Source: a virus. Taken from it: a DNA stretch of 64,000 nucleotides. The stretch lies in IMG/VR virus record IMGVR_UViG_3300037307_000289, one strand, 5' to 3'. The notes under the pieces were generated by a model that did not search any database, was not told where the DNA came from, and worked only from the letters and a program-made list of their open reading frames with translations. Position numbers and translations under genes: made by a program. Each line of letters opens with the position of its first letter. The stretch's first letter is position 1. Below, one piece after another: positions 12,904-31,696 of the stretch.

Positions 12904-13410
12904 TTAACAGCCACAACAACTGTTTTCATTATTTTGTTCTAAATCACAAGAACTTTTTCCCTCTGCTTCATCCAATAAAACATTTAAATATGGAATGCTT
13001 AAATCATAAGCTGGAGGCAGCCATCCTTTATAAGTATATAATTGTTCTAATGTTTTCTTCATAGCATCTGAAGATTTTGTGACTATAAATGACGAAGCTA
13101 TTAATACTTTTATACATTTGCAATATACAAAAATATCTTCATCTTGTTTTAAATTGTTATTCCAGTTGAAAATCAATTCACAAAAACCCTCTAAGAATTG
13201 ACCATACTTTCCACTGGTATTTTGATCAATACAAAATGTTACTAATTCCCTAGTAATCTTTTTACAAAAGTCAATATCAAATTCTTCAACTCTCTCATCT
13301 TTTTGGAGAGACGAAATATGTTGCATTATTAATAAGTAAAACTCCTTAAATTCTGGTGGGTATTCATCTATACTATTTTCTATAAACTGAATTGTTCTAT
13401 TAAAGTCCAC
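12904..13410 (-). CDS. hypothetical helical protein (168 aa) ending in CCGC, immediately downstream of radical SAM enzyme 1
   Basis: Stop/start coupled to 13412..14740. C-terminal ..NENSCCGC. Confidence 0.45.
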   Translation of the reverse strand: MDFNRTIQFIENSIDEYPPEFKEFYLLIMQHISSLQKDERVEEFDIDFCKKITRELVTFCIDQNTSGKYGQFLEGFCELIFNWNNNLKQDEDIFVYCKCIKVLIASSFIVTKSSDAMKKTLEQLYTYKGWLPPAYDLSIPYLNVLLDEAEGKSSCDLEQNNENSCCGC

Positions 13411-13411: not shown

Positions 13412-14740
13412 TTAAAAACCCCCTTTATATTTTTCGTAATAAAGTTTTAAAGACTGTTTTTGTTCTTCACAAACGAAACTATAAATGTAAGGATGAAGTC
13501 CCAAGTCGTATATTTCATCTAACATAGCTTTAACTTTGGCATGTTCTAATAAACAAACAGTTGGGATAGGAGTGAATGTTGTTGAGTTAGTTTCATACAT
13601 TGATCCCCAACACTGTCCACAACATAAATGTTTTATAAGACAAGTTTGACAATATGGAAAATTATCTTCATCAACGCTGGTCCATGCAGTAAGTAAAGAT
13701 GCATTTAGAGCCTTTATTCCAGATATTTCATTATTTTCTATTTCAAATTTCCATAAGTTGTGAGGTTTATAAGATGCTCTATGACAAATAGAATGAGTTA
13801 AATCGCCTAATCTCAATTGAATTGTGTTTTGTACTGAGCATCCGCTGCCTCTTCCAACCCTTCCAAACATACTAAATAAATTACTAAGTCTACTATTTCT
13901 AAGATTAGTCATAAACTTATCTGGGTCATTCCCAACTTTAATATAGTAATAATTAACTAAAAATCTCATAAATTTATAGAAGTCATCTATTTGTTTTATT
14001 GTCCATTCTACATTTCTTACTTCTAAGAAATAAATTGAATCCCAAGACATTTTATGTTTTTCAAACATTTCTTGAAACCATAAATAATTTTGTTTCCACT
14101 TATGAATATTTTTACTATACATCATTGGATGAAATGCATAACTATACTTTGAACAAAACTTAAATAAGTCGTCATAGTATTTATCATCTCTAACTTTACC
14201 ACTTATAAATGGTCTATTTTCATCAACATATTTCCCATCAACTGATGCACTTAAATAAATATAGGTCCCATTATCGAATGCTTTATTAATTAGATATTCG
14301 ACTTTTTTAGTTTTTTCTTTACTAAAAATGAATGACATATTGGTTGGGATAACTACATAATGTGTTTGACATAAATCATTTCTAATATAGAAATCCAATA
14401 TTTTTTCAATTAAAACGAAACCAGCGTATTGAGCAAATACCTCTCCTGAGAATGGTTCTATAATAGGATAAAGCTCATTTTTTTCTAACCACTTAATAAG
14501 AATATCGAAATTATCTAATACTCTTTTTGGATTAGATATATCGTCTGGATATATTTGATCTTTATACTTTGCATAATAACAGTAAGTACATTCTAGATCA
14601 CACTTTGCATTTAACTGAACTTCTAACTTTGCAAAGTTGCCATATTTTTCTTTATCTGATAGATTTTCTCTTTTCCATGCGTTAAAAAAAGTTCTATCTA
14701 AAAAACTTTTTACTAATAGATCATCATGATTTAAAATCAT
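13412..14740 (-). CDS. radical SAM enzyme with C-terminal SPASM domain (peptide/protein-modifying type, 442 aa)
   Basis: CDLECTYCYY gives the CxxxCx(Y)C radical SAM cluster motif. The C-terminal CQTCLIKHLCCGQC gives the canonical SPASM Cx2Cx5Cx3C motif. Confidence 0.8.
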   Translation of the reverse strand: MILNHDDLLVKSFLDRTFFNAWKRENLSDKEKYGNFAKLEVQLNAKCDLECTYCYYAKYKDQIYPDDISNPKRVLDNFDILIKWLEKNELYPIIEPFSGEVFAQYAGFVLIEKILDFYIRNDLCQTHYVVIPTNMSFIFSKEKTKKVEYLINKAFDNGTYIYLSASVDGKYVDENRPFISGKVRDDKYYDDLFKFCSKYSYAFHPMMYSKNIHKWKQNYLWFQEMFEKHKMSWDSIYFLEVRNVEWTIKQIDDFYKFMRFLVNYYYIKVGNDPDKFMTNLRNSRLSNLFSMFGRVGRGSGCSVQNTIQLRLGDLTHSICHRASYKPHNLWKFEIENNEISGIKALNASLLTAWTSVDEDNFPYCQTCLIKHLCCGQCWGSMYETNSTTFTPIPTVCLLEHAKVKAMLDEIYDLGLHPYIYSFVCEEQKQSLKLYYEKYKGGF

Positions 14741-14756: not shown

Positions 14757-15209
14757 TTAAACTTTACTAGTTCTGTTGGTACCATAATATGTTGAATTGA
14801 CCGATACATAATTAGTATTATTAACAGATCCATTATAGGGGCTAGCTAAATATGATGCATTATATGAAGAACAATCTGAAGTATAATACCCGCCACAATA
14901 TCCTGGATAGTATCCACCATTATTACTACTATAATATGGTGAAGAATAATTAGGAGTAGTTAAATTAGAACCATCATTACTATTATAATGTGGAGTATTT
15001 CTAATAGCAACCAAGTATGATCCATCATTGGTAGTATAATGTGGTAAAGCTTGAACTGACGAATAGTGTGGTGTGCTTCTAACAGTTACGTTATATGCAA
15101 CATTTGCTCTATTATTATCCAAAAAGTCTGCATTGGTTCTTACTTCACTCAAATAACTGAATGAAACTTTTGATTGTCCTTGTGTAACTCCTGACCAAGT
15201 GAATGCCAT
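14757..15209 (-). CDS. Tyr/Ser/Asn/His-rich repeat protein (150 aa) with reiterated (T/S)P(H/N/Y)Y(S/T)(S/T) motifs; candidate modification substrate
   Basis: TPHYSS, LPHYTT, TPHYNS, TPNYSS and SPYYSS repeats. N-terminus MAFTWSGVT is shared with two other proteins in the cluster. Confidence 0.5.
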   Translation of the reverse strand: MAFTWSGVTQGQSKVSFSYLSEVRTNADFLDNNRANVAYNVTVRSTPHYSSVQALPHYTTNDGSYLVAIRNTPHYNSNDGSNLTTPNYSSPYYSSNNGGYYPGYCGGYYTSDCSSYNASYLASPYNGSVNNTNYVSVNSTYYGTNRTSKV

Positions 15210-15239: not shown

Positions 15240-15785
15240 TTACGAATAAGATACATTGTGTGGTGTAGCTCTATAAGACCCCATATGAGATGATCTTTGA
15301 GTCGCCTGAACAGATGTATAATGCCCACTAAGTCTATGAGTATTATAGTGAATACTATAATGAGGGCCACTTCTATGAGAACCATGATATGTACCATAAA
15401 ACCCAGTATCTACATTATTATTATAACTACTATTGTGGGTTCCATGATGCCCTGTATCTACATTATTTTGATAACTTGAATAATGAGGTCCAGACCTATT
15501 TGTACTATTGTGTGTAGTAAAATGAGATGAACAAACATTGTTATCATGAACATAATCCAAGGCATTTCTTAGTTCGACAAAATCATCATATTCAATTTTT
15601 CCAGCAGTAGCAACTGGCAATTCACTCCATGAATAATTTGAAATGCCTAGATTTGCACATAAAGTATCGGTGTTTGTTTTTGCCTCATTAAAATGAGTTG
15701 GAATAATTTTTGTCCCTGCTGATACTGAAGTCCATGAGAAAGACATTTTAATTTTCCTCTTTAATAATATTGAAATAGTGTTCAC
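15240..15785 (-). CDS. His/Tyr/Ser/Asn-rich repeat protein (about 181 aa), paralogous to 14757..15209; start uncertain because it overlaps the upstream ORF by about 38 nt
   Basis: N-terminus ..MSFSWTSVSAG. Repeats GPHYSS, GPHYSI and SGHYTS. Confidence 0.5.
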   Translation of the reverse strand: MNTISILLKRKIKMSFSWTSVSAGTKIIPTHFNEAKTNTDTLCANLGISNYSWSELPVATAGKIEYDDFVELRNALDYVHDNNVCSSHFTTHNSTNRSGPHYSSYQNNVDTGHHGTHNSSYNNNVDTGFYGTYHGSHRSGPHYSIHYNTHRLSGHYTSVQATQRSSHMGSYRATPHNVSYS

Positions 15786-16224
15786 TAATTTTAAACCCTG
15801 GAACGTTTAAACAGTTAATCTCGTTTGTTAATCTAGAACAAGTTTCTTCTAAAAGTCTTATTTTTTCTAAAAGTGGTGATGAATCAGATGTTACCCTTCG
15901 CAAAAATGAAATTCTTTCTTGCAGATCTTCATTTCTATAAAAATCTTTACAGAAATTTTCAACTATAATAACAAAAGATAGTATGAAATCTTTTAACTCG
16001 GGTTCTAGAAACCTTGAGTACATAATGCCTAGTAAATGTTCTGTACACTTCATTAATAAATTTCCATCAATATTATCTGGAGTTTTTCCTTCTGCTTTTA
16101 ACTTAAATGATAGTTCCATCATTTCCAAAACAAAAAAATACTCAATACCAAGTTCTTTTGAGAAAACATAACATGATCTAGGAGATGATAGAAAAAATCT
16201 ACAAATTTCAAAAAGTTGTTCCAT
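15748..16224 (-). CDS. hypothetical helical protein (158 aa) immediately downstream of radical SAM enzyme 2
   Basis: ORF coupled to 16226..17584. Same positional relationship as 12904..13410 has to radical SAM enzyme 1. Confidence 0.45.
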   Translation of the reverse strand: MEQLFEICRFFLSSPRSCYVFSKELGIEYFFVLEMMELSFKLKAEGKTPDNIDGNLLMKCTEHLLGIMYSRFLEPELKDFILSFVIIVENFCKDFYRNEDLQERISFLRRVTSDSSPLLEKIRLLEETCSRLTNEINCLNVPGFKISEHYFNIIKEEN

Positions 16225-16225: not shown

Positions 16226-17584
16226 TTATATCCTTCCTAAAATTTTCTTTACATAAAATTCAAACGCCCCATTTCCAAACATTCTAATAGTTGAAAGCAC
16301 CGAAGCTTCCATAGTACTCCCTTCATAAACATTATCTAATTGACAAGAGCATCCTTCTAAAAATGTTGAAAATAAATAACTAAACTTCTTATTTTTATAA
16401 ATAGGTGAAATTTGATTACAGCAAGCTAGTTCATGAATTGCAGCCATTCTTATGGTTGTTCTATGAATAATAAAATCTTGAAACCCTCTATTAACATACA
16501 ACATTTTTAGAAATTGCTTTTTATTATTAATATCTGCAATACCAGTCTTTACTATAATTTCATTTCTTCCAGCTTCTATATTATCTATTTCTTTTTTATT
16601 TTTGTTCCATTTTTTTACTTCATTTTCATATTCTGGATAATTTGTATAATAACTTCTGTGGCACCCATATAAAGTATTTGGCAAGTCTCCAAACCCAAAG
16701 CATGAATCACCAGATGAACAAGAAAACATTCTTGGTTTAGTAAAATATTCTTTATAATATGGAAGTTTGTCTACCCATCTATTAAAATAGAAACAAGAAG
16801 GATAAAAAATATGTTTATATCTTTCTTCATTACCTATTTCAAATTGTAGTTTAATCATTTTTAAAAACGAAATTCCATCATCTTGTGTATAGTTATCTGG
16901 CACTACAAGAGTTGGATTAACGAATTGTGATATTGTAATTTTTTTATTACCTATACTTTCAATCCATTTTTTTAAGCAGTCTTCAAAGAAATCATAATAA
17001 TTAACAAGAACTTCCTTATCACACATTTTTCTAACTATTTCTTTCGTTATTGTAGATTTAATTGTGAAACTTATATTATGAAAATCTTCGACATTTGAAA
17101 TTACTTCTTTAACATTATTTACTATAGTATTTGTTGAACCACCCAATCTGTTCTTATCAGTAATCCATTCTGGGCCATCTAATGATATTTGAAAAGATAC
17201 ATTAAGTTTTCTATTCTTAGGTAAAATTTCATTAACAAAATTTATTATATTCTTTGGTGGAGTCATAAAATTTGACGACATATGAATATTATTTAATTTT
17301 GGAAAAGAATCAACTGCTTCTTTATAAAAATCTTTAAATAAACTTAATGTTAATGTGGGTTCTGTTCCCCAATGTGAGAGACTATCTAAATCTTCACCCA
17401 TCATTTCTTTTAGCTCTTTTAAAAGATCCCCATTTTTAATTCTTTCTATAATTTTTGAGTGAACCTTTTTTAAGAAGTCTGTTTTTGGAATAAAACAATA
17501 TTTACAATTTAAATTACACCAACCAGATGAAAATAATTGAATAGCACTAGCCACATTTTCAGAAAAGTATTCGTTCAATTTCAT
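16226..17584 (-). CDS. radical SAM enzyme with C-terminal auxiliary Cys clusters (SPASM/twitch-like, 452 aa)
   Basis: GWCNLNCKYC gives the CxxxCxYC motif. C-terminal Cys groups CSSGDSC..GC and ACCN..GCSC. Confidence 0.75.
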   Translation of the reverse strand: MKLNEYFSENVASAIQLFSSGWCNLNCKYCFIPKTDFLKKVHSKIIERIKNGDLLKELKEMMGEDLDSLSHWGTEPTLTLSLFKDFYKEAVDSFPKLNNIHMSSNFMTPPKNIINFVNEILPKNRKLNVSFQISLDGPEWITDKNRLGGSTNTIVNNVKEVISNVEDFHNISFTIKSTITKEIVRKMCDKEVLVNYYDFFEDCLKKWIESIGNKKITISQFVNPTLVVPDNYTQDDGISFLKMIKLQFEIGNEERYKHIFYPSCFYFNRWVDKLPYYKEYFTKPRMFSCSSGDSCFGFGDLPNTLYGCHRSYYTNYPEYENEVKKWNKNKKEIDNIEAGRNEIIVKTGIADINNKKQFLKMLYVNRGFQDFIIHRTTIRMAAIHELACCNQISPIYKNKKFSYLFSTFLEGCSCQLDNVYEGSTMEASVLSTIRMFGNGAFEFYVKKILGRI

Positions 17585-18453
17585 TAGTATTTTTCCACCA
17601 TCGAAAAAGATTTGTTAGAAGTTGTATCTAATATATTACATTCACATAACTTATTAAAACCAAACATGTTTTCATAATAGTAAGGAACTCTAACTTGAAA
17701 TATAGTTCCTTCCTCTAAGTCTAAACATGCTTGATCTAAAGCTGTTTTATCAATTTGATTACTGCCCCATTGATCTAGTAATGCTTTAACACTAATATAG
17801 AAATTTATAGTAGATTCTGGTTTAGAAAGAAGAGAACTAGAATAGTGCAATCCATCAGGTCTTCTGTTAGGGTCTACTATATTATAGAGACCACTTTGAT
17901 TATATTTATCAACATGATATTTTTGAAGATATGCACAAATTCCATCTTTCCAAGTTAAAAACTTTCTATGTGTATTATTGATATTTGGATTAATCTGGTT
18001 TTTAACTAAATGAAAAAATAAAAATGACTTTAAATCATTTATTTTTAATGGATCATTAACTTCTGGAAATGTAAAATAAGTATTATAAGACTCATCTTGA
18101 ATATATGTTTCAACTTGTTCAAGAATTGCTGTTGTATCAAAATTTTGATTTATTAGATCCACTAAATTTAGTTCTGAAAAAACTACATAATCAATATTAA
18201 GATTTTGACACCAGGTTTCACAATACGATTGGTCAAAGGAATATGTACTTTCCGTTCCACCAAACAAAGAGGTATAATTTTTATTATGATATGAAAAGCA
18301 TACCACTGAAGTAGTAGAGTTATTTTTCAAGATAGTTAATAAATCTTCATGGCCAGTATGAAGTTCTCCGTTCCCCTTTACATTGAAGGTCGAAACACCA
18401 ATATTACTCCCTACTATATTTTCTAAATCGAACCAGCTAGTTAAAACTTGCAT
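17584..18453 (-). CDS. HxGH-motif nucleotidyltransferase-fold protein (289 aa)
   Basis: GNGELHTGHEDLL resembles the (T/H)xGH signature of cytidylyl/adenylyltransferase-type Rossmann enzymes. No further assignment. Confidence 0.4.
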   Translation of the reverse strand: MQVLTSWFDLENIVGSNIGVSTFNVKGNGELHTGHEDLLTILKNNSTTSVVCFSYHNKNYTSLFGGTESTYSFDQSYCETWCQNLNIDYVVFSELNLVDLINQNFDTTAILEQVETYIQDESYNTYFTFPEVNDPLKINDLKSFLFFHLVKNQINPNINNTHRKFLTWKDGICAYLQKYHVDKYNQSGLYNIVDPNRRPDGLHYSSSLLSKPESTINFYISVKALLDQWGSNQIDKTALDQACLDLEEGTIFQVRVPYYYENMFGFNKLCECNILDTTSNKSFSMVEKY

Positions 18454-18465
18454 TTTTAGTTCCTC

Positions 18466-19500
18466 TTATAAATATGTTTTAATCAAGTTTTGAAAATCTG
18501 TTTTATTTTTTTCATAAGCAAATTTTTCTCTTGCTCTTTCAACTATGTCAAAAGAAACTTCACTTAAGTCAGGATTATCATTTTTTAGTTTAACTAGATT
18601 GCTTAATAGTTCGTCTTCTTTATTACAACCAAAATATAAACCTTTTGCCCAATCAATCCACCTGTAATCAAATGATCTATCTGTTCTATCATTACATACT
18701 AATGGGATTGTTCCACATAAAATGCTTTGTAATAAAGTAACATTAAATATTTCAGAAAATCGCCCATGTGGCAAAACAAAATATTTATACTGATTTAAAA
18801 TTTCAGATACAGAGTTTTGTGGAACCATTGGTAAAATATTTATTCCACTTTCTAATACTTTTCTTTTATAGTCATCATCTAAATAACTAGATATTTCAGA
18901 ATAAAAATCTATTTCTATACCATTGTAATTTTTATATTTATCAAGAAATTCAGTAGAAACTTTTATTGGCATAATATAACCCATGTAACAAAATAGCTTT
19001 TTTCTTTCATTCCATGGAATTATTGGTTTATATACTTTTGGATTTACCGGAAACCAACTCTTTATTATTTTATCTTTTACCCATAAAGGAAATTCAACAT
19101 CTCTAACTGGGCCATTTAATGTTATAGCATGATCCATTGATTCATTATAAAATTTTACTGTAAACCAAACCTTAGCACTATCTTCAGTATTGTTTTCTCC
19201 TTGGTCTTCAAACTTTATCATTAGCCCATCATAAGAATGAACTATACATATAACTTTTGTGTCTGGAAAAAACTTTTTATAATAATAAGTGGTATCTGTA
19301 CTCTTGTGATATATCTCATTCAAAACAACAACATCAGGTTTTTCTCTTATCATTTCAGTTATTAAATGTGGCGACTGATCCTGATGTTTTTGTTCGTATA
19401 TTTCAATATTTTCAATTTCTTTTAACCACTCTAATATCACATTACCGGTGTACTCTATTCCAGAACCAACATTGAAATTGTAATAGAACAGTTTTTTCAT
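18466..19500 (-). CDS. putative GT-B fold glycosyltransferase (344 aa)
   Basis: The C-terminal region RFSEIFNVTLLQSILCGTIPLVCNDR resembles the GT4-type E..F..llEAm..G.P.I donor-binding motif. Confidence 0.45.
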   Translation of the reverse strand: MKKLFYYNFNVGSGIEYTGNVILEWLKEIENIEIYEQKHQDQSPHLITEMIREKPDVVVLNEIYHKSTDTTYYYKKFFPDTKVICIVHSYDGLMIKFEDQGENNTEDSAKVWFTVKFYNESMDHAITLNGPVRDVEFPLWVKDKIIKSWFPVNPKVYKPIIPWNERKKLFCYMGYIMPIKVSTEFLDKYKNYNGIEIDFYSEISSYLDDDYKRKVLESGINILPMVPQNSVSEILNQYKYFVLPHGRFSEIFNVTLLQSILCGTIPLVCNDRTDRSFDYRWIDWAKGLYFGCNKEDELLSNLVKLKNDNPDLSEVSFDIVERAREKFAYEKNKTDFQNLIKTYL

Positions 19501-19838
19501 CTATTCTCCTTTTGAAAACATTCATAACATTTAAATATTTGTTCTAAATTTTCCTCTTTGCCTTCCAATTTTTTTTCAATATAATAATCTTCGCATGAGC
19601 TACAAACCAATAGAATATAACTTTCTCCATCAATCATAAATCTTCCGTTAGAATATTTTAAGTTTTGTATTGTATCCCAACATAGTCTTACTTCTTTTCT
19701 ATACTTTCCTCTGTTAGTACATGTTGGAGAAAAAGCAGAATTATATGAAGTACAACTATTCTGTTTTAATTTTGGAGTACTATAAAATTTATCAACTTTG
19801 TAATTATTTTCTAAATTCTTATTCCAGTTAAATGCCAT
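19497..19838 (-). CDS. zinc-ribbon protein (113 aa) with MAFNW N-terminus
   Basis: CSSC...CYEC pairs. The N-terminus MAFNW resembles MAFTW/MSFSW of the repeat proteins. Confidence 0.45.
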   Translation of the reverse strand: MAFNWNKNLENNYKVDKFYSTPKLKQNSCTSYNSAFSPTCTNRGKYRKEVRLCWDTIQNLKYSNGRFMIDGESYILLVCSSCEDYYIEKKLEGKEENLEQIFKCYECFQKENR

Positions 19839-20724
19839 TTCCGTAATCCCAAACTCTGTAAAGTTGTTTTGTTTTTCTATCTCTTATTATTATTGAAATT
19901 ATTGATTTATTCATAGTTATTTCATTATTAACATGAGTGAATGAATCTAATTTATATTTAATGGATCTTAAAACTAAATCATCTATATTTTTAGATAAAT
20001 TATCAATATCATTATCATTCCTAAACTTGTTAAAAAAAGGGACCATTTTACTAAAAACTTCTACAACTTCAGGAGGATAAGTTTTAAATGAAACATCATA
20101 TGCTAAACCATTTTTATTTCTCAGTATAGGAACCATTTTATAAGTACCACTACAATACTTTTCCCAGAAATGTTTATATAAAAATCCCCAAGTTCCTTCT
20201 GGAGAAACAGCTTGAAAACATCTATTTATAAATTTACTTCCTGATCTATCTGTATATAAAAAATAATGTCTACTAAGAACTAATTTGACCCATGCAGTAT
20301 TTCCCTCAATAGACCAATTGCATAAATAAGGTTCGTATCCTTCTTTTATCCAGATTTCATCTATTTCTTTTCTGACTTGTTTAAAGATTTCATCTTCAAA
20401 TAGTTCATATATAAACTCTTTGTCTGGAAGAAATAAATAATCAAATTTCTTTTCACTCAACCATTTTATTGCATTTTCTTCATCATATTCAGATATCTTA
20501 GTTGGGATTCCTCTAAATACATTTATATCATGATAATTATCCCAAATAACACAAAGAAGTTTTTGCCCCATACCAACTGAGTACTTATACAAATGTTCGT
20601 GAGTAAAATCAAATAAATGTAATCCTCTAGAATATCCAACACAACTATATGTATAATTGGGGTCAACTAATTGTTTCAGCTTTTTCCAATCTCTTATTAC
20701 TTCCATCTTACTCCTTCTGTCCAT
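19828..20724 (-). CDS. hypothetical protein (298 aa)
   Basis: ORF in operon context. Trp/Tyr-rich. No family recognised. Confidence 0.45.
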   Translation of the reverse strand: MDRRSKMEVIRDWKKLKQLVDPNYTYSCVGYSRGLHLFDFTHEHLYKYSVGMGQKLLCVIWDNYHDINVFRGIPTKISEYDEENAIKWLSEKKFDYLFLPDKEFIYELFEDEIFKQVRKEIDEIWIKEGYEPYLCNWSIEGNTAWVKLVLSRHYFLYTDRSGSKFINRCFQAVSPEGTWGFLYKHFWEKYCSGTYKMVPILRNKNGLAYDVSFKTYPPEVVEVFSKMVPFFNKFRNDNDIDNLSKNIDDLVLRSIKYKLDSFTHVNNEITMNKSIISIIIRDRKTKQLYRVWDYGNGI

Positions 20725-21500
20725 GCTTTATAATCATCAAATGAAAATGTTGCATGGACCCACCCATTCATTTTATAGAAGTTAATAACTTTCAAGCCTT
20801 CAATTTCTTTTATATGTTCTCTAACGTGTTCTATATTTTCAAAATCAGGTAATAAAAGTTTTTTATTTATTCTATCTTTTAAATGTTTTGGTAACCCGCT
20901 AATTGTTCTTGAAATTGAATTACCATAAGAATCAGTTTGTGAGTCCAATAAGTCCAGTTTTAATCCCCACCTGTCGTAGACATAATCAGTATATCCTACT
21001 GATCTAAATCTATCTTTTCCTCCTTGCCCTTGATACTCAAACTGTAGATTATAAACTCCATGAATAATATATCTAGTTGCAACTGCTTCAAATAATGAGT
21101 TATAAGTATCCTTATCATCTAGAACACCTTTTTCTTTTAAACATTCAATAGGAAACTGTTCAGAAAACTCATTATCAATTTCTTTTAAATAATCTTGGTA
21201 AGGAAAATAATTTCCTGTTAATATTAAACCAACATCAGAATATTTTTTTAAATATTCAATATCTGATTCATATACAGGGAATGTTTCTATATTATTTTTC
21301 CCCAAAAGCTTTTCAAATACTTTTGCTCTGTTGTTGAATAGTATTCCAACTACCCAGTCACACTTCTGAGCAGACTCTGCACATTTTTGATGCCCAGAAT
21401 GAAATTTTCCTTGAAAAATCCATAGTCCTCTAGTTCCGTTTTCGGGGTGCAACCTTTTTAAATCATCATATGAATAAACTATTATTCCTTTTCTAGACAT
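20697..21500 (-). CDS. HxGH-motif nucleotidyltransferase-fold protein (267 aa)
   Basis: WIFQGKFHSGHQK fits the G-x-F-x(3)-H-x-G-H cytidylyltransferase-like signature. Confidence 0.45.
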   Translation of the reverse strand: MSRKGIIVYSYDDLKRLHPENGTRGLWIFQGKFHSGHQKCAESAQKCDWVVGILFNNRAKVFEKLLGKNNIETFPVYESDIEYLKKYSDVGLILTGNYFPYQDYLKEIDNEFSEQFPIECLKEKGVLDDKDTYNSLFEAVATRYIIHGVYNLQFEYQGQGGKDRFRSVGYTDYVYDRWGLKLDLLDSQTDSYGNSISRTISGLPKHLKDRINKKLLLPDFENIEHVREHIKEIEGLKVINFYKMNGWVHATFSFDDYKAWTEGVRWK

Positions 21501-22665
21501 TACAAATCCCCTTTTCTAAAAACTTATCATAATTATTTTCATAGAAAAACTCTTCAAATATTCCACAGTTATAATATAGTTTAAAAAATGACTTATACAT
21601 TTTCAATACTTCATCATTCAACTGCCTTTGTTTATCACTCAATCTATAAATATAATATGTTTTTCCATATTTGCTAGTATGCGGAATAGTTTCATCTTCT
21701 TTACTATGTGCAAATAACCAATGATTCAAACATGAAATTTTATCTTTATACTTTTCTAACTTTGAAAGAAAATATTCTATTGACTTAACATCATCTTTTA
21801 TTAAATTATTCCATCCATGTATTACTGTAATCTTAACGTGACATTTTCTTTCTATAAAATATTTCATAACTTCTATAGCTGAATCTACATCTATTCCTTT
21901 ATTCATTATATCATACATTCTGTTAGATGGGAATTCTATTCCTATAATTGGTCTAAATCTATCATGTGGAATTCCTTTTTCATTTAATGCTTTTAGGATC
22001 TCCCTATCTCCTCGTATAAAAAAAGTATAGTAAGATTCTTTCTTTAAATTCTGAAATAGTGTTAAAATATCTCTTGGTGTTACAGAAAGTTTGTTTAACC
22101 AAATAGTATTTCTGTTTGGTTTTATTATTGGTATTTGATCTGCATCCACATCTGCATCAATACCATAATCCCTATTGCAAAATTTACACTTTCCCCAGTA
22201 ACATTTATTTCCATATGATAGAGAATAGTTGTAATATATCTCTAACTTATCAATATCTCTTAAATTTGGCAAAACTAAATTCCATGTTTTTTCGCTAGGT
22301 TTTATTCCTAATATTTCAAACATATTTCTTTTATCTGAAGTAAAGTTTTCAGAATCAACATGGAAATCTAAATAGTTAACAGCTGGGCCTCCAACTATAA
22401 ATTTAACATTTTTATTTTCTTTTATTAATGTTTCTACATACTTAAACTCTGTATCAAAACCACAAGAAATATATACAGTTCCTTCAACACTAGGATAAAA
22501 TTTATTAGTTGGGTCAATCCAAAGCATTTTTCCTTTATTTTTAATTACATTCCAAACAGATGAAAACCCATTTTTTAGAAATAAGACTCCATCTTCTATT
22601 TTGTAAAATTGAATATAAGTTTCCATTATTTCTTCTCTGATTCGCCTAGATGATTTTTTCTCCAC
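21493..22665 (-). CDS. Cys-cluster enzyme with a Cx4Cx2C motif, possibly a radical SAM variant (390 aa)
   Basis: GNKCYWGKCKFCN with an aromatic before the last Cys, as in radical SAM loops. Paralog of the next gene, sharing the E(F/Y)PS(N/D)(R/K)M(Y/L)..MNKG block. Confidence 0.45.
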   Translation of the reverse strand: MEKKSSRRIREEIMETYIQFYKIEDGVLFLKNGFSSVWNVIKNKGKMLWIDPTNKFYPSVEGTVYISCGFDTEFKYVETLIKENKNVKFIVGGPAVNYLDFHVDSENFTSDKRNMFEILGIKPSEKTWNLVLPNLRDIDKLEIYYNYSLSYGNKCYWGKCKFCNRDYGIDADVDADQIPIIKPNRNTIWLNKLSVTPRDILTLFQNLKKESYYTFFIRGDREILKALNEKGIPHDRFRPIIGIEFPSNRMYDIMNKGIDVDSAIEVMKYFIERKCHVKITVIHGWNNLIKDDVKSIEYFLSKLEKYKDKISCLNHWLFAHSKEDETIPHTSKYGKTYYIYRLSDKQRQLNDEVLKMYKSFFKLYYNCGIFEEFFYENNYDKFLEKGICNV

Positions 22666-23807
22666 TTATCATCTTTTTCTGAAACATCATAAACTTTTAA
22701 AAATGGATATGAATTAATTAGTTTTCTAATTTCACTATTTATAATTTTTTGTTTTTCAGTTTGTTTGGATAAACCAACATAAACATCATAATCTGTCTCA
22801 CATATATCCATATCTTCTAATGTATATTCCTCAGACATTTTTCTATCTGGCATAATAGTAAGAGGATAAACATTAGCAGTAATTGTATTTGGTTTAGAAA
22901 TAAGTGAAATTTTATCTAGAAAATATTTCATGCTATCTAAATCATCATAATCAGTTGGTTTCCACCCTAAGATAAAATTGAAATGTAATCTAATATCGTT
23001 CTGACTACATACTTCAATAAAATTTAAGTAGTCTTTTACAGTTGCCCCTTTATTCATATACTTTAACATTTTATCTGATGGGTATTCTATTCCTAAATTA
23101 AAAGCTAGATACTTAGGATCGACTTTCAATAATGGTAATATTTCTTTTAATGCTTTAGTAGAATAATTATCTCCTCTTATATATGTTGCATAAACAACAT
23201 CATCTCTTTTTTCAAATTGAGGATATAATTTTTTCATAAAAAATGGAGGCATTGAATAAACATGCAACCAAATAAACTTTTTATGTGGACTGTCGATAAC
23301 TGGAACTGTATAAGTTTCTCTATACTTTAATTTTCCAGTTATTTTACAGTATCTACATTTTCCCCAATAACATCCATATCCATCTACTAATGCAACACTA
23401 TACCCAATTGGCTTTTCAGTTTCAACTACTTCTAGATTCCATTCTGATATTTGCCCATTACATAAAAGATCTTCAGCGTTTAAATTGCTAATATGAAAGT
23501 TTGGTAATTCTTTTCCTAGTTTAATTCCATAATGTAAAACAAGTGGGCCACAAACGTATACTTCAAGATTTGAATATGTTTGTGCCCACTTGTATAATAA
23601 TCTTAAACTCTTAGAATACCAAACTGATGCATAAATAATTCCTTCTGTTGCAACTATAGTTTCTTCTTCAACATTTCTCCAAACCATCTCTCCTTGTTCT
23701 TTTAGTTGGTTCCATACTAACGACAAACCATTATTAAAGTTTACAATTCGATCAGGGCCATAGAGAAAATCTTCTTCTCTATAAAATTGAAGAAAATACT
23801 TTTTCAT
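22626..23807 (-). CDS. paralogous Cx4Cx2C Cys-cluster enzyme (393 aa)
   Basis: GYGCYWGKCRYCK. Shares motif blocks with 21493..22665. Confidence 0.45.
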   Translation of the reverse strand: MKKYFLQFYREEDFLYGPDRIVNFNNGLSLVWNQLKEQGEMVWRNVEEETIVATEGIIYASVWYSKSLRLLYKWAQTYSNLEVYVCGPLVLHYGIKLGKELPNFHISNLNAEDLLCNGQISEWNLEVVETEKPIGYSVALVDGYGCYWGKCRYCKITGKLKYRETYTVPVIDSPHKKFIWLHVYSMPPFFMKKLYPQFEKRDDVVYATYIRGDNYSTKALKEILPLLKVDPKYLAFNLGIEYPSDKMLKYMNKGATVKDYLNFIEVCSQNDIRLHFNFILGWKPTDYDDLDSMKYFLDKISLISKPNTITANVYPLTIMPDRKMSEEYTLEDMDICETDYDVYVGLSKQTEKQKIINSEIRKLINSYPFLKVYDVSEKDDKWRKNHLGESEKK

Positions 23808-24812
23808 TTACATTGCCCACTTTCCAAGTGTTAATCCTGTAAACAAATACATTGAGATAAATCCTAAACATGAAAGTGTTGCTACATATTCAGGCCCCCA
23901 TTTCTCTTTATATAAAGGCCAATAATTTACAGTTGGTATTGCTCCTATTGGTTGAAAGATTGCAACTGCTGCTATAGCATTCCAAGGAAGAATAAACCAA
24001 ATAATAATAAGTTGTAATATACCACAAGCTATTAACATATTTTGATAACCAAATTTCATTCCCAACCATGCATTTGGCCATCTTGATCCAGCTGCTATAA
24101 AACTTAATCCTGCTGTAATATATATTGAAGTTTGTTGACTAAAACCTTGTGCTTTAATAGCAGGGACAAACTGTGTAATTGCATATTGATAACCAGATGA
24201 GAAAAATCCACAGATTGCCATCAAAAACCAGAATCTCCAATCTTTACAGAGCTTCAAAAAGATAGACCATTTCCATCCTTCAATCTTATCATCTGGCATC
24301 ATTATATAAGTAAGGATTCCTGATATACCAAAAACAGTTGCTAGAATAAGTGTTGAAGAAGACCACCCCCATTTTAACAATACAGCACTAAGAAATAATA
24401 AAAAGAATATTGAACCAATATTCTTCGCTGCACCTTGAGGGCATATAGAATAAGCTTCATTCTTATTTATTAATTTCATTGGTCCAGAAAAAGGTATTAC
24501 TTTGATTAATGCCCCAGATAAACCAAATAGTATTCCAAATATATAAGGACTATAATTTAATCCAATAATTCCACCTATACCAAGAATTACTGCCGCCGCC
24601 ATAGCTTTTCTTGAACTAACATTATCAAGCAATGGTCCAATAAAAAACATAGCAGCAGAGAGAGAAATAAAAAAGATTGATAATCCTTGCATAAACCAAG
24701 GAATGACAAGATCAGTTTTAGCTAATGTTGTCATACCATGCTGGATCGCATAGGATCCAAATACGGCTAGAGCTAACGGAAACCACATCCACTTTAATGA
24801 CGAACTACCCAT
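23808..24812 (-). CDS. polytopic membrane protein, MFS-transporter-like (334 aa)
   Basis: At least 9 hydrophobic helices. GPLLDNVSSRKAM resembles MFS motif A (GxLaDrxGrkxxl). Confidence 0.55.
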   Translation of the reverse strand: MGSSSLKWMWFPLALAVFGSYAIQHGMTTLAKTDLVIPWFMQGLSIFFISLSAAMFFIGPLLDNVSSRKAMAAAVILGIGGIIGLNYSPYIFGILFGLSGALIKVIPFSGPMKLINKNEAYSICPQGAAKNIGSIFFLLFLSAVLLKWGWSSSTLILATVFGISGILTYIMMPDDKIEGWKWSIFLKLCKDWRFWFLMAICGFFSSGYQYAITQFVPAIKAQGFSQQTSIYITAGLSFIAAGSRWPNAWLGMKFGYQNMLIACGILQLIIIWFILPWNAIAAVAIFQPIGAIPTVNYWPLYKEKWGPEYVATLSCLGFISMYLFTGLTLGKWAM

Positions 24813-24857: not shown

Positions 24858-26144
24858 TTATTTTACTTTTACCCAATGTCTACCATTAACAGCAACTTGA
24901 TTATTTGGACCCCAAAATTCAGCTGTCTCGGGTTTCTTATAAACTCCTACAATTCGTTCAGGGTATAGAGCTTTTTCTTGATCAGTCATTTTAACTAAGC
25001 TACCATCTGCATCGTTGGTCAATACATCACCAGAAACACATGATGTTGCATCATTAACATAAGCTAAAACCCAACCGCAAACTGCAATAGAGACTTGGGT
25101 TTTATTAGAGTCTTGACCAACACCATAACCAAATGTGTCAGAAGCTATTCCAATAACTGATTTTTGACATCTTTCACTACAAATGTAAGCTCCCTGAAGT
25201 GTATCATAATAACATTTTCCCGCGATAAATTCTGGATCAGCTAAATCTTGAAAATCAGCTATGTCGTTCCATATTGCATTGTAAACTCTAGTTGCATAGA
25301 AGTAACCATCATAATTTAGTCTAGAAGTATTTGTTGGGTCAGTAGATCCTGAATAAAGATATCCAGCAGCTTTATATTCATTATTAATATTTAATGAAGC
25401 ATAACATATAATTGTATCATCAGGATTAATTCTTAATCTTTCATTAGAAACCCCGGAAGCATCGTTAGTCCAAAATCTAATTCTACCAGGTGTTATTCCA
25501 GTACTTACTGTTCCTACCACTTCAGCTAAAATTCTTGCTGCTTGGCTATTGTATGTAGAACCATCATCACAATTCCATACAATACTTCCAATATTATCTG
25601 AATTTGTTAAAGCAGAAAAGCTTTCTGGCGCTGTACTTCTACTTTTTAAGAATCTAAAATATGATTCATTGCCGTCATTACTAAATCTGCCTAGTAACAT
25701 ACTGCTAGCAGAATATGTAGTCCCTAACACCTGAAATATGTAATTGGATCCACCTATTATTAAACCTTCGTCAATATTATAATTAGTTAATCTTCCTAGA
25801 GGAGTCATTTTCCATCTAATAGCATTATCTGTTTTAAATTCAATTTTTCCGCCGGTTACATCTATTACTTCTATGCTTGAATCTCCTTGATATATTTTAT
25901 TTGTTGAAAAGTCACCTATACTAGTATCGACATAACTCTTAACTGCTTTTTCAGTTGGTAATGCAGTATCTGAATTTCCTGCTAAAGTAGTATCAGTAGA
26001 AAATTCATTTATATTTGTTAATGTAGCGTCTAATTGTAAAGAATTAAATAAACCTTTTCTAGTAGCGTCCAAGACCGTGGATGATCCATGAACGATTGTT
26101 TGAGAAGAAGTTAGAACGAGATTTCCGTTTCTAAACTTTGCCAT
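24858..26144 (-). CDS. tail-fiber-like protein (428 aa) carrying one copy of the shared fiber module
   Basis: INEFSTDTTLAGNSDTALPTEKAVKSYVDTSI..KIYQGDSSIEVIDVTG. A GGAGGAAT RBS precedes the ATG. Confidence 0.6.
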   Translation of the reverse strand: MAKFRNGNLVLTSSQTIVHGSSTVLDATRKGLFNSLQLDATLTNINEFSTDTTLAGNSDTALPTEKAVKSYVDTSIGDFSTNKIYQGDSSIEVIDVTGGKIEFKTDNAIRWKMTPLGRLTNYNIDEGLIIGGSNYIFQVLGTTYSASSMLLGRFSNDGNESYFRFLKSRSTAPESFSALTNSDNIGSIVWNCDDGSTYNSQAARILAEVVGTVSTGITPGRIRFWTNDASGVSNERLRINPDDTIICYASLNINNEYKAAGYLYSGSTDPTNTSRLNYDGYFYATRVYNAIWNDIADFQDLADPEFIAGKCYYDTLQGAYICSERCQKSVIGIASDTFGYGVGQDSNKTQVSIAVCGWVLAYVNDATSCVSGDVLTNDADGSLVKMTDQEKALYPERIVGVYKKPETAEFWGPNNQVAVNGRHWVKVK

Positions 26145-26464: not shown

Positions 26465-26839
26465 TTAAATCCCCGCTTTAATTATTACTTGAGGCTTAGT
26501 TGGCCACACTGGTTTTTCTGGGTCAGTTGTATTCTTAGGTAAATCTCTCAATGCTTTTCTGTACATTGTTATATCAATTTGTTCTTGTTCGTTATATCTT
26601 GAAAAGACATCTGGAAGTACCATAAAATCAGTTCTATTTAATATTACATCTCTTTCCAATCTTAATTTTTCATATGCTTTGTCTTTTAGTTCTTGTTCAG
26701 TGAATTCTGGATCAGGAACGTTTCCATTTGATAACCATTCTTTGTATGCAATCCAATCATAATTTGCATCATCATTTGGAATAAAACATGTAGTTTCAGT
26801 ATTCTGAACTCCAGATGAAGTTATTTTATATTTTGCCAT
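26465..26839 (-). CDS. tail fiber assembly (Tfa-like) chaperone (124 aa)
   Basis: C-terminal MYRKALRDLPKNTTDPEKPVWPTKP matches the Tfa motif W..YR..L..VD.......WP..P (lambda Tfa sequence recalled from memory). Sits directly downstream of a fiber gene. Confidence 0.5.
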   Translation of the reverse strand: MAKYKITSSGVQNTETTCFIPNDDANYDWIAYKEWLSNGNVPDPEFTEQELKDKAYEKLRLERDVILNRTDFMVLPDVFSRYNEQEQIDITMYRKALRDLPKNTTDPEKPVWPTKPQVIIKAGI

Positions 26840-26850
26840 TTTTAAACTCC

Positions 26851-27918
26851 TTATGAAATCTCACATGATGCAGTCCAGTTACATACCATACTCAAGGTAG
26901 CTGCTACATTTACTGTTCCATACCAATAGAATCCTGTTGTACTAACAGTTGGTGTTCCAGCATTATAATCTGTATTATTTGTCCAACTACGAACTTTTCC
27001 TGCTGCACCAGTATCAGTAGAATATATAGTAACTGTGGGGGTATAACATTTTTCAACTGCAAATTTAACGTCTGCTCCACCTGTTCCTATTGTTGAAGCT
27101 CCTCCAACACTAAGATATTCTAAAGCACAACCATTTGATGTTATAGTACCTGGTGCTGTAAACATATTATAACTTTTTTCGTAATATCGTTTACACAAGT
27201 TCCCTTCTTTATTTAAAGTTCTTAATTCAAACGGGGTTGGTTGTGAACCAACTTCTAATTGAACACCTATCATATAAAATGCATTATTTATTGCTGACAA
27301 TAGATTTGCTTGATTTGGTCCATAATAATAATTACCTGAAAGCCAAGTATTAAATGTAGAAGTTAGTGCGTTACCCGGAGCTACATCCCAGCATATATTT
27401 ACACCACGATCATTAGTTGACCCAAATGTTACACCAGATGAAGGAAATGTTATTGGAATTACAACATAAGTCCATACAGAATTAGGCATTGTATAAGGAA
27501 CAACATACGAATAGTTACTACTTGTCCCTCTAAATGCAACATAATAAGTTCCGGGATTATTAGTCCATGCCCAAAAACTTAAAACACAACTTTTTCCTTT
27601 TATATAATTAAAGTCATATCCTTCAACAGAATATAATATTGCTACCCATTGAGCTGTGCCTGTAGCAGAGCAATAAACTTGTAATGGAGAATGAATAAAT
27701 GGGGCATCTGCTGGTGGTGTACCTGTTTGTCTATATCCAACTGTTCCAGTCAAAGACCCAGTTTCTAAACTGAATCTATCAGGCAAGAAGTTTGATGTAG
27801 TTCCAGTTATTCCAGAAAGTGTAGTTCCTCTTTGCCATATTTGCATCGCGCCGTTTATAATTAGGTTTCTTCTATAAGGATTTTGTAAAACAGTATTTTG
27901 TATTTTTGTTAAAGACAT
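26851..27918 (-). CDS. tail-fiber tip / receptor-binding paralog 1 (355 aa)
   Basis: Family blocks: MSLTKIQN..NLIINGAMQIWQRGT, GVQLEVGS.PT.FE and L.LCKRYYEKSY. Confidence 0.6.
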   Translation of the reverse strand: MSLTKIQNTVLQNPYRRNLIINGAMQIWQRGTTLSGITGTTSNFLPDRFSLETGSLTGTVGYRQTGTPPADAPFIHSPLQVYCSATGTAQWVAILYSVEGYDFNYIKGKSCVLSFWAWTNNPGTYYVAFRGTSSNYSYVVPYTMPNSVWTYVVIPITFPSSGVTFGSTNDRGVNICWDVAPGNALTSTFNTWLSGNYYYGPNQANLLSAINNAFYMIGVQLEVGSQPTPFELRTLNKEGNLCKRYYEKSYNMFTAPGTITSNGCALEYLSVGGASTIGTGGADVKFAVEKCYTPTVTIYSTDTGAAGKVRSWTNNTDYNAGTPTVSTTGFYWYGTVNVAATLSMVCNWTASCEIS

Positions 27919-27920
27919 AT

Positions 27921-30088: not shown

Positions 30089-30090
30089 TT

Positions 30091-31647: not shown

Positions 31648-31696
31648 TAAATCAGTCCTCCTTTATAGTTCTGCACTAAATAAAACATAACCACCA

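Follow-up and report, generated by a model that had tools for sequence, protein, structure and literature searches.

The window, the 64,000-nucleotide stretch of the virus record IMGVR_UViG_3300037307_000289 analysed here, carries in its late region a minus-strand cassette of about 12 kb (24812→12904). An ORF check bore out the eight minus-strand genes and the coordinates given in an initial annotation: B to I (17584–24812) are tightly packed, with neighbouring reading frames either overlapping or separated by no more than 12 nt. These genes had been placed downstream of a radical SAM pair; as transcription runs 24812→17584, they are actually located upstream of that pair, genes J (16226–17584) and N (13412–14740), both on the minus strand. 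Directly upstream of the whole cassette, on the same strand, is a gene for a tail-fibre protein of 428 aa (24858–26144), which matches PHROG tail-fibre families.

Orthologues of B–I, at 25–77% identity and in the same order, were found in eight other phage contigs. B–I are conserved genes rather than chance ORFs. Where this phage was assembled from other data, D and F are called from 22626 (377 aa) and 20706 (292 aa), respectively, which are probably the true starts. One syntenic cassette is common to nine independent phage loci (the window, L001, L003, L006, L008, L010, L012, L014 and L019), with the shared order tail fibre, MFS permease, two PanC-like proteins, SPASM enzyme, helper, L, M, SPASM enzyme and helper. 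The invariable core comprises the E-type and F/I-type PanC-fold proteins, J, N, K, O, L and M; E is present in all nine loci and the permease in eight of them, while C and D (B12-type radical SAM), H (GT4) and G (CxxC) are optional additions. A tail-fibre homologue precedes the cassette in all eight loci in which this could be assessed. No protease and no ABC or C39/peptidase exporter is encoded in any of the nine loci, and no RRE was detected in them.

An exhaustive profile search with the PanC-like family returned 38 proteins, representing 38 clusters among 1.84 billion representatives; all have a phage-type context and no canonical PanC is included. Neither GTDB genomes nor GenBank phages contained a match for the family, and tblastn with E and J gave none in 50,697 GenBank phage records. 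The cassette was found only in uncultured tailed phages. In L008 it lies next to a T4-type portal gene, a GH25 lysozyme gene is found nearby in L001 and L003, and L001 also has, a few kb upstream, CTP_transf_like genes and faintly QueC-like ones.

Predicted enzymes and helpers of the cassette

Gene B (23808–24812) encodes a compact permease of 334 aa whose assignment to the MFS, proposed initially, is confirmed by Pfam MFS_1 (E = 3.3e-10, 39.9 bits, cut-off 33.4). Its orthologues span positions 22–345 of the 347 in this profile, and one of them has a weak, sub-threshold similarity to the L-lactate MFS protein SfMCT (3.9e-5).

The products of C (22626–23807, 393 aa) and D (21493–22665, 390 aa as called) are indeed paralogues with a common Cx4Cx2C cluster, as the initial annotation had described (29% identity, E = 2e-31). 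In C the cluster is C146-x4-C151-x2-C154 (CYWGxCxxC), which is invariant in 22 family members, and D has the same motif. Foldseek comparison of the AF2 model of C (pLDDT 91.7) with the PDB gave MgmA (9ccb, 6.6e-8) as the best match, followed by OxsB, RimO, TokK, MiaB, AprD4 and TsrM; the best NCBIfam match, far below its cut-off, was TIGR04014, the MCR glutamine C-methyltransferase (1.9e-8). Pfam gave no B12-binding match for C and D, and the window copies did not reach the gathering score of Radical_SAM. According to the predicted structure, C and D combine a Rossmann domain with a radical-SAM barrel in a B12-type architecture, closest to the protein methylase MgmA. AprD4-type cobalamin-independent chemistry is no less possible than cobalamin use.

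Three PanC-like proteins are encoded by E (20697–21500, 267 aa), F (19828–20724, 298 aa as called) and I (17584–18453, 289 aa). E contains the motif H34-S-G-H37, invariant across 21 homologues, along with conserved G(K/R)D.(F/W)R and GN..S motifs. In I, which is of the F type, the motif is an intact H32-T-G-H35, and in F it has degenerated to D-F-T-H. This loss is confined to the subgroup of the window, L001, L003 and L006; the F-type proteins of L008, L010, L012 and L014 all retain HxGH, and I aligns with them. I also matches the F orthologue of L001 (BLAST 6e-5) and, weakly, an NCBIfam FAD-synthetase N-domain. All top 50 PDB fold matches of the E model (pLDDT 83.7) were pantothenate synthetases, the best being 3qtt_B (2.7e-10). 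In sequence searches of the PDB, PanC was the sole non-artefact match of E (E = 0.03–1.2), a link below significance library-wide, and the F/I family profile matched PanC 3mxt_A at E = 2.9e-5 across both domains. None of E, F and I passes the PanC models of Pfam and NCBIfam, and at the pantoate site (VNPxQF in PanC) E has an Ala aligned with the Gln. Model and profiles point to PanC-fold proteins resembling carboxylate-amine ligases, not sugar-nucleotide transferases. The two HxGH nucleotidyltransferase-fold proteins of the initial annotation therefore keep their motif (E and I) but appear to be ligase-like, and F, in which the motif is lost, had been missed.

H (18466–19500, 344 aa) scores only 13.5 bits against Glycos_transf_1, under the 26.4 cut-off, and had no PDB sequence match; its orthologues (42–45% identity) pass this Pfam model with 36.3 and 34.5 bits, so that H is predicted to be a GT4-like GT-B glycosyltransferase, as had been suspected. 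The general label of glycosylation-type genes is not supported, the HxGH proteins having a predicted PanC fold; nor is the glycosyltransferase a core member, as it occurs in only four of the nine loci. The adjacent G (19497–19838), overlooked before, encodes a protein of 113 aa whose two CxxC pairs look, on inspection, like a Zn ribbon. It has homologues in L003 and L008 and no family match in Pfam, PHROG and NCBIfam searches.

J (452 aa) and N (442 aa) are radical SAM/SPASM-type proteins resembling peptide maturases. In NCBIfam, J matches the PapB family (8.5e-14, 51.5 bits against a cut-off of 340), anSME (3.8e-10) and the cyclophane synthases GrrM, YhhB, DynA and AmcB, all far below the cut-offs; the HxsB family score of the cassette enzymes was 30.9 against 370 bits. 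N, which is 48–52% identical across loci and carries a Cx2Cx5Cx3C motif, has weak NCBIfam matches including the SPASM domain TIGR04085. The putative helpers K (15748–16224, 158 aa) and O (12904–13410, 168 aa, with a Cys-rich C-terminal tail), both on the minus strand, are paralogues that share NWN.N and W.PP.F.LS.HYF..LKEE motifs, and K invariably adjoins J and L across loci. We take SDRRLKxNI to be a tail-fibre-chaperone motif.

L and M as candidate substrates of a proposed maturation pathway

Between K and N lie the minus-strand genes for two paralogous proteins, L (15240–15746, 168 aa) and M (14757–15209, 150 aa). L has a duplicated conserved N-terminal region and a tail rich in His, Tyr, Ser and Asn, and its start, MSFSW, agrees with that of homologues; M contains PHY..ND repeats and 8 N-x-S/T sequons. 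In alignments, both proteins show a conserved N-terminal region of 45–90 aa followed by a hypervariable polar tail, with core motifs typical of sub-lineages (PHY..ND, SIHTGKD and (S/T)PQY...D). Their length varies across loci from 92 to 390 aa and is set by the number of repeats, the longest (310–390 aa) having about 30. The tails are periodic at lags 8, 16 and 24 (z up to 22; for L of the window, 16 residues, z = 5.1), a property that 19 control proteins encoded in the window do not show. Presumably, the 8-residue periodicity is that associated with phage triple beta-helices. Moreover, in the metagenomic ORF P0059, whose contig is present in two samples, lectin domains of about 500 aa, an M-like segment and an E domain are fused in this order. 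L and M are, to judge from these features, most likely small repeat-rich fibre-like proteins and the substrates of the cassette.

The synteny in nine loci and the natural fusion of an M-like segment with E uphold the proposal that these genes, the radical SAM module and the transporter form one functional unit. The explanation we prefer, with belief and doubt in equal measure, is a phage-specific maturation pathway for L and M, of which B–I would be the accessory half. It is based on the co-occurrence and synteny of the genes and their tight spacing; on the PanC fold of E and F/I, with HxGH in every E and most F/I proteins; on the B12-type architecture of C, with MgmA as best match, and the SPASM-maturase similarity of J and N; on the architecture, periodicity and repeat-dependent length of L and M and the P0059 fusion; and on the tail-fibre gene upstream together with the lack of a protease or ABC exporter in any locus. 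The chemistry is drawn by analogy. K and O, with J and N, would bind the conserved N-termini of L and M, and J and N would act along the repeats, introducing radical cross-links or C-H chemistry of another kind. C and D might add further radical modifications, probably C-methyl groups as MgmA does. E and F/I, one ligase per substrate, would adenylate a carboxylate and create amide (or ester) linkages on L and M or between them, and H, in phages that have it, could glycosylate Ser, Thr, Asn or Tyr. The permease may take a small molecule across the inner membrane, either a co-substrate (for the ligases possibly an organic acid) or a by-product. Such a pathway would involve PanC-like ligases and B12-type radical SAM proteins, enzyme types not previously linked to the modification of fibre-like phage proteins. 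That its end products are protein-sized, fibre-like components of the virion or associated with the tail fibre is a view we hold tentatively, with doubt slightly prevailing; exported small peptides are distinctly less probable. Several points count against the maturation pathway: with products that remain in the virion, the near-universal permease is hard to account for, the family matches of J, N, C and D are all far below curated cut-offs, the sequence link between E and PanC does not reach library-wide significance, and the combination of a conserved N-terminus and a variable, repeat-bearing tail is also the classic layout of leader and core in RiPP precursors with several cores.

That layout may be taken literally. 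In a true RiPP cluster, L and M would be long-leader precursors with several cores, each core unit of 8–16 aa being cross-linked by J and N and tailored by C–F, H and I; host proteases would release small products, and the permease would export a toxin, signal or superinfection blocker. The sub-lineage core motifs, the resemblance of J and N to maturases of repeat motifs (PapB, GrrM, HxsB and cyclophane families) and the permease in eight of nine loci all suit this reading, and MFS exporters do serve small RiPP pathways, namely MccC of microcin C, PaaC of pantocin and BotT of bottromycin. However, every locus is devoid of a protease, RRE and ABC/C39 exporter, substrates of up to 310–390 aa with some 30 repeats would have to be processed, the cassette occupies the late structural module directly after the tail fibre, the M-like segment of P0059 sits behind the lectin domains, and a lytic phage frees the cell contents anyway. 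We thus consider it unlikely. The complete biosynthetic gene cluster with export, as first suggested, is accordingly no more than a possibility, the presumed substrates of 90–390 aa having a fibre-like 8-residue periodicity and invariably following directly on a tail-fibre gene; of the alternative then offered, fibre or DNA glycosylation, fibre modification fits better than such a cluster, and DNA glycosylation is unsupported.

In T4-like pelagiphages, a hypervariable region with the tail-fibre genes was described as containing 'radical SAM cassettes' along with glycosyltransferase and transport genes, and O-chain modification was suggested (PMC7029224). Extended to our loci, and with the nearby GH25 lysozyme of L001 and L003 in its favour, this proposal for glycosyltransferases in host-recognition clusters would make the glycosyltransferase, permease and ligases an envelope-remodelling island that modifies host LPS, capsule or peptidoglycan against superinfection and has no connection with L, M, J and N. 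It is improbable: five of nine loci lack the glycosyltransferase, yet E, F/I and the permease stay with J–O, the M–E fusion ties a ligase to a repeat protein, and family searches revealed neither genes for sugar-nucleotide synthesis nor a flippase or polymerase. Decoration of phage DNA bases by the radical SAM, nucleotidyltransferase-fold and glycosyltransferase enzymes seems more remote still. Radical SAM enzymes and transferases can occur in phage thymidine hypermodification clusters (see PMC8989533), and the CTP_transf_like and QueC-like genes of L001 could be counted in support; however, no kinase, aGPT-Pplase, hydroxymethylase, dNMP or deazaguanine gene was found in the cassette by family searches, no match places the genes in nucleotide or DNA-modification metabolism, the SPASM enzymes look like peptide maturases, and dedicated repeat proteins with helpers would have no role and a permease would be unexpected. 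Least credible of all is that E, F and I are real pantothenate synthetases serving as vitamin B5 auxiliary metabolic genes, with the permease importing pantoate or beta-alanine. PanC is their sole fold and family match and the permease weakly resembles monocarboxylate transporters, but the failed PanC models, the 38 proteins without a canonical PanC and the Ala in place of the pantoate-site Gln speak against it, and B5 synthesis would give no reason for two or three divergent paralogues in each phage or for the fusion with an M-like segment.

Comparison with known systems

SPASM systems acting on repeat precursors include the XYE/GRR/FXS cyclophane 'triceptides', His-Xaa-Ser, PapB ranthipeptides, PQQ and mycofactocin with its glycosyltransferase MftF (for cyclophane synthases of this kind see PMC11499958 and PMC11851443). 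Like them, the cassette has SPASM enzymes beside small proteins with a conserved N-terminus and short His/Tyr-rich repeats, adjacent small helpers and extra tailoring enzymes. It differs in family scores far below cut-off, in the undetected RRE and protease, in substrates of up to 390 aa with octad periodicity, in a core that includes PanC-like ligases and a permease, and in its phage-only occurrence beside tail fibres. With class B radical SAM enzymes C shares the Rossmann-like N-domain and radical-SAM barrel, and its top match by both fold and family, MgmA (methyl-coenzyme M reductase glutamine C-methyltransferase), modifies a protein residue; the cluster of C and D is Cx4Cx2C, in contrast to CxxxCxxC in cobalamin-dependent enzymes. 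E and F/I resemble PanC (pantoate-beta-alanine ligase) in the two-domain fold and the equivalent place of HxGH, and we assume, matching by eye, that the G-K-D and G..S motifs of E correspond to the GEKD and GLAxSSRN positions. Unlike PanC, they fail the family models, do not conserve the pantoate-site Gln, occur as two or three paralogues per cassette and have lost HxGH in one lineage.

The 'radical SAM cassettes' of pelagimyophages, for which PMC7029224 has no gene-level description, likewise place radical SAM, glycosyltransferase and transport genes among the tail-fibre genes of low-GC T4-like phages. In its position directly after the tail fibre, the cassette is also similar to tail-fibre accessory and adhesin genes, such as the chaperones encoded beside fibre genes. 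To our knowledge, no fibre-assembly system includes radical SAM, PanC-like or MFS proteins, and no homology to known chaperones was found for the cassette proteins. The likeness to tail-fibre accessory genes extends to small proteins with a conserved N-terminus and a hypervariable C-terminus, encoded next to their helpers.

Organisation and distribution of the cassette

The window comes from an uncultured tailed phage and has a low GC content (27-40%); nearly all genes between about 52 kb and about 2 kb lie on the minus strand. The interval from 24812 to 17584 is filled by eight overlapping or abutting minus-strand ORFs, which in the order of transcription are B (334 aa), C (393 aa), D (390 aa), E (267 aa), F (298 aa), G (113 aa), H (344 aa) and I (289 aa). 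The series then runs uninterrupted through J (452 aa), K (158 aa), L (168 aa), M (150 aa), N (442 aa) and O (168 aa) on the same strand, down to 12904. The initial annotation placed B-I downstream of the radical SAM pair J and N, which is true of plus-strand coordinates only, as B-I are transcribed first. Directly upstream of B we found a gene for a 428-aa tail-fibre protein, a tail-assembly chaperone (Phage_tail_APC) and seven consecutive, paralogous tail-fibre genes (26465-34999, minus strand; 343-518 aa, each assigned to PHROG 4492 with E as low as 1e-64). So many fibre genes next to the cassette are unusual.

[quoted passage not shown] Promoters and terminators were counted no more and no less often than expected after shuffling, and PADLOC models found no defence system in the cassette, only a generic radical SAM similarity of J to pVip (1e-5). 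Two giant minus-strand ORFs occupy 35015-46371. The 1415-aa product matches collagen-like and tail-fibre PHROGs, while the 2337-aa product has only short matches to structural proteins of Salinibacter and Halorubrum viruses and to a 'pyocin knob', and yielded no lineage assignment. A full-length RtcB RNA ligase is encoded at 8746-9936 on the minus strand (Pfam 1.1e-52; PHROG tRNA splicing ligase 2.9e-105) and suggests tRNA repair against anticodon nucleases of the host; a tRNA scan of the window returned zero genes. At about 51400-52100 the strand switches, with divergent transcription and a flip in the sign of the GC skew at about 52 kb, and the plus-strand genes that follow include a metallophosphoesterase (57106-57768).

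Homologues of the cassette proteins form few clusters among 5.8 billion proteins (19 for E, 21 for C and 17 for L/M), and their contigs supplied eight additional independent loci, hence nine with the window. In a BLAST map of these loci, all nine carry E, F/I, J, K, L, M, N and O, in constant order. The MFS permease gene is found in eight (it is missing in phage contig L008), the C-type enzyme in seven, the glycosyltransferase in four and G in three. A homologue of the 428-aa tail-fibre gene stands directly upstream in 8/8 assessable loci. The minimal cassette, on the 43-kb viral contig L019, consists of the fibre, MFS, E, F/I, J, K, L, M, N and O genes; the product of the gene after O carries a Walker-A motif (GPVGSGKSS) and by eye looks like a terminase large subunit. 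In L008 the cassette is followed by a T4-type portal gene, and L012 lies on a 276-kb contig. Most components come in pairs (presumed substrates, SPASM enzymes, helpers, PanC-like proteins and, in many loci, B12-type enzymes), beside one transporter.

The initial annotation had seen in these genes a resemblance to a complete biosynthetic cluster with export. With the corrections given here its observation is confirmed, and its interpretation finds support in part. A single functional cassette with a transporter is borne out by this survey; glycosylation as its primary pathway is not. Neither megablast of the 13-kb block nor tblastn of E and J matched any of 50,697 GenBank phages, the E family had no match in 185,579 GTDB species genomes, and C and E as single-sequence queries found nothing in IMG/VR; the alignment-based scan of IMG/VR returned one locus, L019. 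A few kb upstream of the cassette, the L001 contig has two genes, one CTP_transf_like and one faintly QueC-like (L001:1211-3180), possibly of a separate nucleotide or deazapurine pathway.

Enzymes of the cassette

Two of the encoded proteins had been noted as HxGH nucleotidyltransferase-fold proteins. The motif is indeed there, but the proteins are PanC-like and three in number, as judged by fold matches for E and by a profile for F and I: E reads HSGH, I reads HTGH and F has lost the ATP motif. E has no Pfam, PHROG or NCBIfam match. Its structural model (pLDDT 83.7) shows the two-domain PanC fold, a Rossmann N-domain followed by a C-terminal domain, as does the F/I profile, and the best 50 PDB fold matches of the model are all pantothenate synthetases (top E=2.7e-10), with a TM-score of only about 0.45. 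A viral fold library gave weak cytidylyltransferase matches and nothing else. PPR-repeat matches of E were rejected as spurious, as they arise from a 25-aa helix worth about 5 bits per stretch, multiplied by the repeats; with this helix removed, the E family profile matched only PanC chains in the PDB (E=0.03-1.2). F and I are paralogous to each other, and their joint profile matches C. jejuni PanC (3mxt_A) at 2.9e-5 over both domains. BLAST and hhalign found no direct link between the E and F families, PanC being their sole connection, and single-sequence PDB searches with E, I and the glycosyltransferase H gave nothing or artefacts.

The HxGH ATP-binding motif is invariant in the E family, and I as well as the F/I proteins of L008, L010, L012 and L014 also carry it. 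It is lost in F of the window and in its orthologues of L001, L003 and L006. In other phages the one F/I-type gene keeps it. None of the three proteins reaches the curated PanC models (PF02569/TIGR00018; no Pfam or NCBIfam PanC match). In a profile alignment with N. gonorrhoeae PanC, the Gln of the VNPxQF motif, which binds pantoate in PanC structures, is replaced by Ala in the E family. When 1.84 billion representatives were searched exhaustively by profile, 38 proteins were found, none of them a canonical PanC. Thus, it can be concluded from the failed family models, the Gln-to-Ala change and the exhaustive search that E, F and I are not canonical PanC.

C and D are paralogues (29% identity, 2e-31), and a CYWGxCxxC motif is invariant in 22/22 family members. 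This motif is Cx4Cx2C and departs from the canonical CxxxCxxC. PF04055 scores 26.1 and 21.5 bits for C and D, under the gathering threshold of 29.5 and over the C-terminal part of the domain only. The model of C (pLDDT 91.7) gives full-length matches to MgmA (6.6e-8), OxsB, RimO, TokK, MiaB, AprD4 and TsrM and predicts an N-terminal Rossmann-like domain with a radical SAM barrel, i.e., the class B radical SAM architecture. AprD4 has the identical architecture without B12, hence the fold is no proof of cobalamin binding, and C and D have no match to the Pfam B12-binding domain. For all C-type proteins, the family model that matches best is that of the MCR glutamine C-methyltransferase, with scores far under its cut-off. 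A role as methylthiotransferases of the RimO/MiaB kind was rejected because the three conserved cysteines of the N-domain (UPF0004) are missing, with no invariant Cys before residue 146 in the 22 sequences. On the 77-kb contig L007 a lone C-type gene (L007:10001-11191; product 57% identical to C) lies away from any cassette, flanked by a methionine-aminopeptidase-like (M24) gene and ClpP. In L012 (L012:16761-20066) the corresponding position is taken by a 306-aa ORF.

J and N are most like the peptide-modifying SPASM enzymes PapB, anSME and the cyclophane synthases (NCBIfam), and fall below all family-membership thresholds tested. Their paralogous helpers K and O have no family class, and the cassette proteins gave no RRE/PqqD or leader protease matches. 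O (12904-13410) ends in a short Cys-rich C-terminal tail (…SSCDLEQNNENSCCGC); its orthologue in L006 (L006:9096-9617) ends …EGCKQEVSCS, and the other orthologues lack such a tail. Just past O, three contigs carry extra canonical radical SAM genes (L001:16642-17745, L003:13835-14938 and L014:12229-14615; PF04055, some Fer4_12), of which no counterpart was seen near O in the window.

The MFS-like permease first seen by eye was confirmed, B scoring 39.9 bits with Pfam MFS_1 (PF07690) against a cut-off of 33.4, and its orthologues 65-66 bits over the whole profile. It is the only transporter of the cassette. A crude hydropathy scan of four orthologues gave 7-9 hydrophobic peaks (8 in B), where a canonical MFS protein would have 12 TM segments. 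One orthologue bears a weak, sub-threshold likeness to a lactate transporter. H is a probable GT-B enzyme of GT4-like type, as judged by its orthologues (42-45% identical; 36.3 and 34.5 bits with Glycos_transf_1, PF00534), whereas H itself scores 13.5 bits, under the gathering threshold of 26.4. The EX7E position in H reads E250...Q258, and a PDB sequence search with the family found no match. Sequons are frequent in M of the window (8), yet the glycosyltransferase is optional, and an N-glycosylation theme was rejected. G, with its two CxxC pairs, matched no family.

Presumed substrates L and M

L and M share the N-terminal motif (M)xFxWxx(I/V)xxGxxIxxxxxN(E/D)(V/L)(K/R)xNxDxL, of which L has a second similar copy. 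The mechanical call of L (15240-15785) uses a GTG that lies 13 codons ahead of the proper start, which is at 15746 according to homologues and the MSFSW motif. Past the motif, both proteins consist of polar, unalignable repeats whose type depends on the lineage: His/Tyr/Ser/Asn-rich with PHYxxND units in the window, SIHTGKDAS units in L001, acidic GAQEAGQDSAENPS units in L008, (S/T)PQYxxxD units in the homologue P0053, and 23-29% Asp in the 368-390-aa proteins of L019. A universal core motif was thus rejected, the motifs being lineage-specific.

Autocorrelation of the tails peaked at lags 8, 16 and 24 in 13 of the 17 tested (z up to 22), and three of the remaining four had adjacent periods (9/18/27 in P0053, 17 in P0059 and 16-17 in M of the window). 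L of the window reached z=5.1 at lag 16; M reached about 3.4 at lags 16-17, which is near the control maximum of 3.1 and marginal alone. Structure is weak in L012_M, with its strongest peak at lag 4 (z=5.5). None of 19 further window proteins, eight of them tail-fibre proteins, had such periodicity, and at the level of DNA TRF found no tandem repeats in the genes for L and M. A period conserved despite free drift of the sequence points to a structural repeat or a fixed enzymatic register. In the T4 gp5 needle, octapeptide repeats mark a trimeric triple beta-helix. A PDB search with the N-terminal region of L/M returned only coiled-coil noise.

The L/M homologues of some lineages, among them L008 (9299-11015) and P0053, have SDRR(L/Q)K(x)(N/D)I(x)Y at the C-terminus. 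This sequence presumably resembles the opening strand of Peptidase_S74, the intramolecular chaperone domain of tail fibres, of which the remainder is missing. M-type proteins have a conserved penultimate Lys (...S/T-K-x).

The 991-aa protein P0059 joins two Laminin_G_3 lectin domains, an M-like N-terminal motif with SPHYTGND repeats and a complete E domain in a single ORF, with no internal start residues at the junctions. Its 3.3-kb contig was found in two samples (ENA ERZ22067504 and a JGI sample), and a 99-aa gene, of the size of G, precedes it. This fusion ties E to the M-type proteins and shows that M-type repeats can belong to a large lectin-bearing protein.

Possible function and comparison with known systems

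The gene identities, the synteny, the fusion and the periodicity are what the data show; the mechanism given here is inferred from them, and the chemistry and the product of the cassette carry real uncertainty. By analogy with characterised relatives, J and N, with K and O, would probably recognise the conserved N-termini of L and M and modify the repeats. C and D would contribute further radical chemistry, probably C-methylation as in MgmA. Following PanC chemistry, E and F/I would adenylate a carboxylate and transfer it to an amine or hydroxyl; Asp side chains, C-termini and the penultimate Lys of M-type proteins are candidates for such ligation, or alternatively an imported acid. H would add glycosylation in the phages that carry it. 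The likeness to a lactate transporter and the PanC analogy suggest, as a guess, that the MFS protein imports an organic acid.

With their leader-like N-terminus and core beside modifying enzymes, L and M fit the layout of RiPP precursors, but they are 92-390 aa long and fibre-like. An exported small RiPP would agree with this layout and with the near-universal MFS gene. We nevertheless favour protein-sized, fibre-associated products, to which we give somewhat less than an even chance, because the genes follow a tail fibre, the proteins reach 390 aa, their tails are periodic, one homologue is fused to lectin domains, and neither a protease nor an ABC exporter is encoded; the exported RiPP we hold to be less likely. 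Little speaks for envelope remodelling, DNA modification or vitamin B5 synthesis. A fully specified version of the fibre-associated reading would be RiPP-like maturation of fibre-like, possibly receptor-binding virion proteins, with radical SAM/SPASM staples placed per 8-residue repeat, amide or ester links made at side chains or termini by a hitherto unknown family of PanC-derived enzymes, and acid or amine building blocks imported by the MFS protein. We consider this version rather improbable.

Should that version be true, no earlier case would exist of a PanC-fold enzyme that acts on a polypeptide, nor of radical SAM maturation in a phage host-recognition component. If confirmed, tailed phages would carry their own multi-enzyme line for post-translational maturation of hypervariable fibre-like proteins, which would be a new way to diversify host range and to stabilise the virion. 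The PanC fold would gain a new functional branch (38 clusters in 1.84 billion representatives, all in phage-type context), and the enzymes would be candidate tools for repeat-protein stapling. The unexplained 'radical SAM cassettes' in tail-fibre islands of marine T4-like phages would likewise obtain a testable function. Our search of the literature on PanC-like enzymes in RiPPs and on phage-encoded RiPP clusters found nothing relevant; the sole related item was a remark on "radical SAM cassettes", glycosyltransferases and transport genes in pelagimyophage host-recognition clusters (PMC7029224).

Judged from its genes, the cassette appears to work like a radical SAM/SPASM maturation system, outside every family threshold tested. 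The His-Xaa-Ser system (HxsA-D), in which the paired radical SAM enzymes HxsB and HxsC go with an HxS-repeat protein, does not match: J scores 30.9 bits against HxsB, where the cut-off is 370, and HxS triplets occur in L and M of the window and not in most orthologues. To our knowledge, two enzyme types of the cassette are new to radical SAM/SPASM maturation systems, and here they stand inside a phage structural module.
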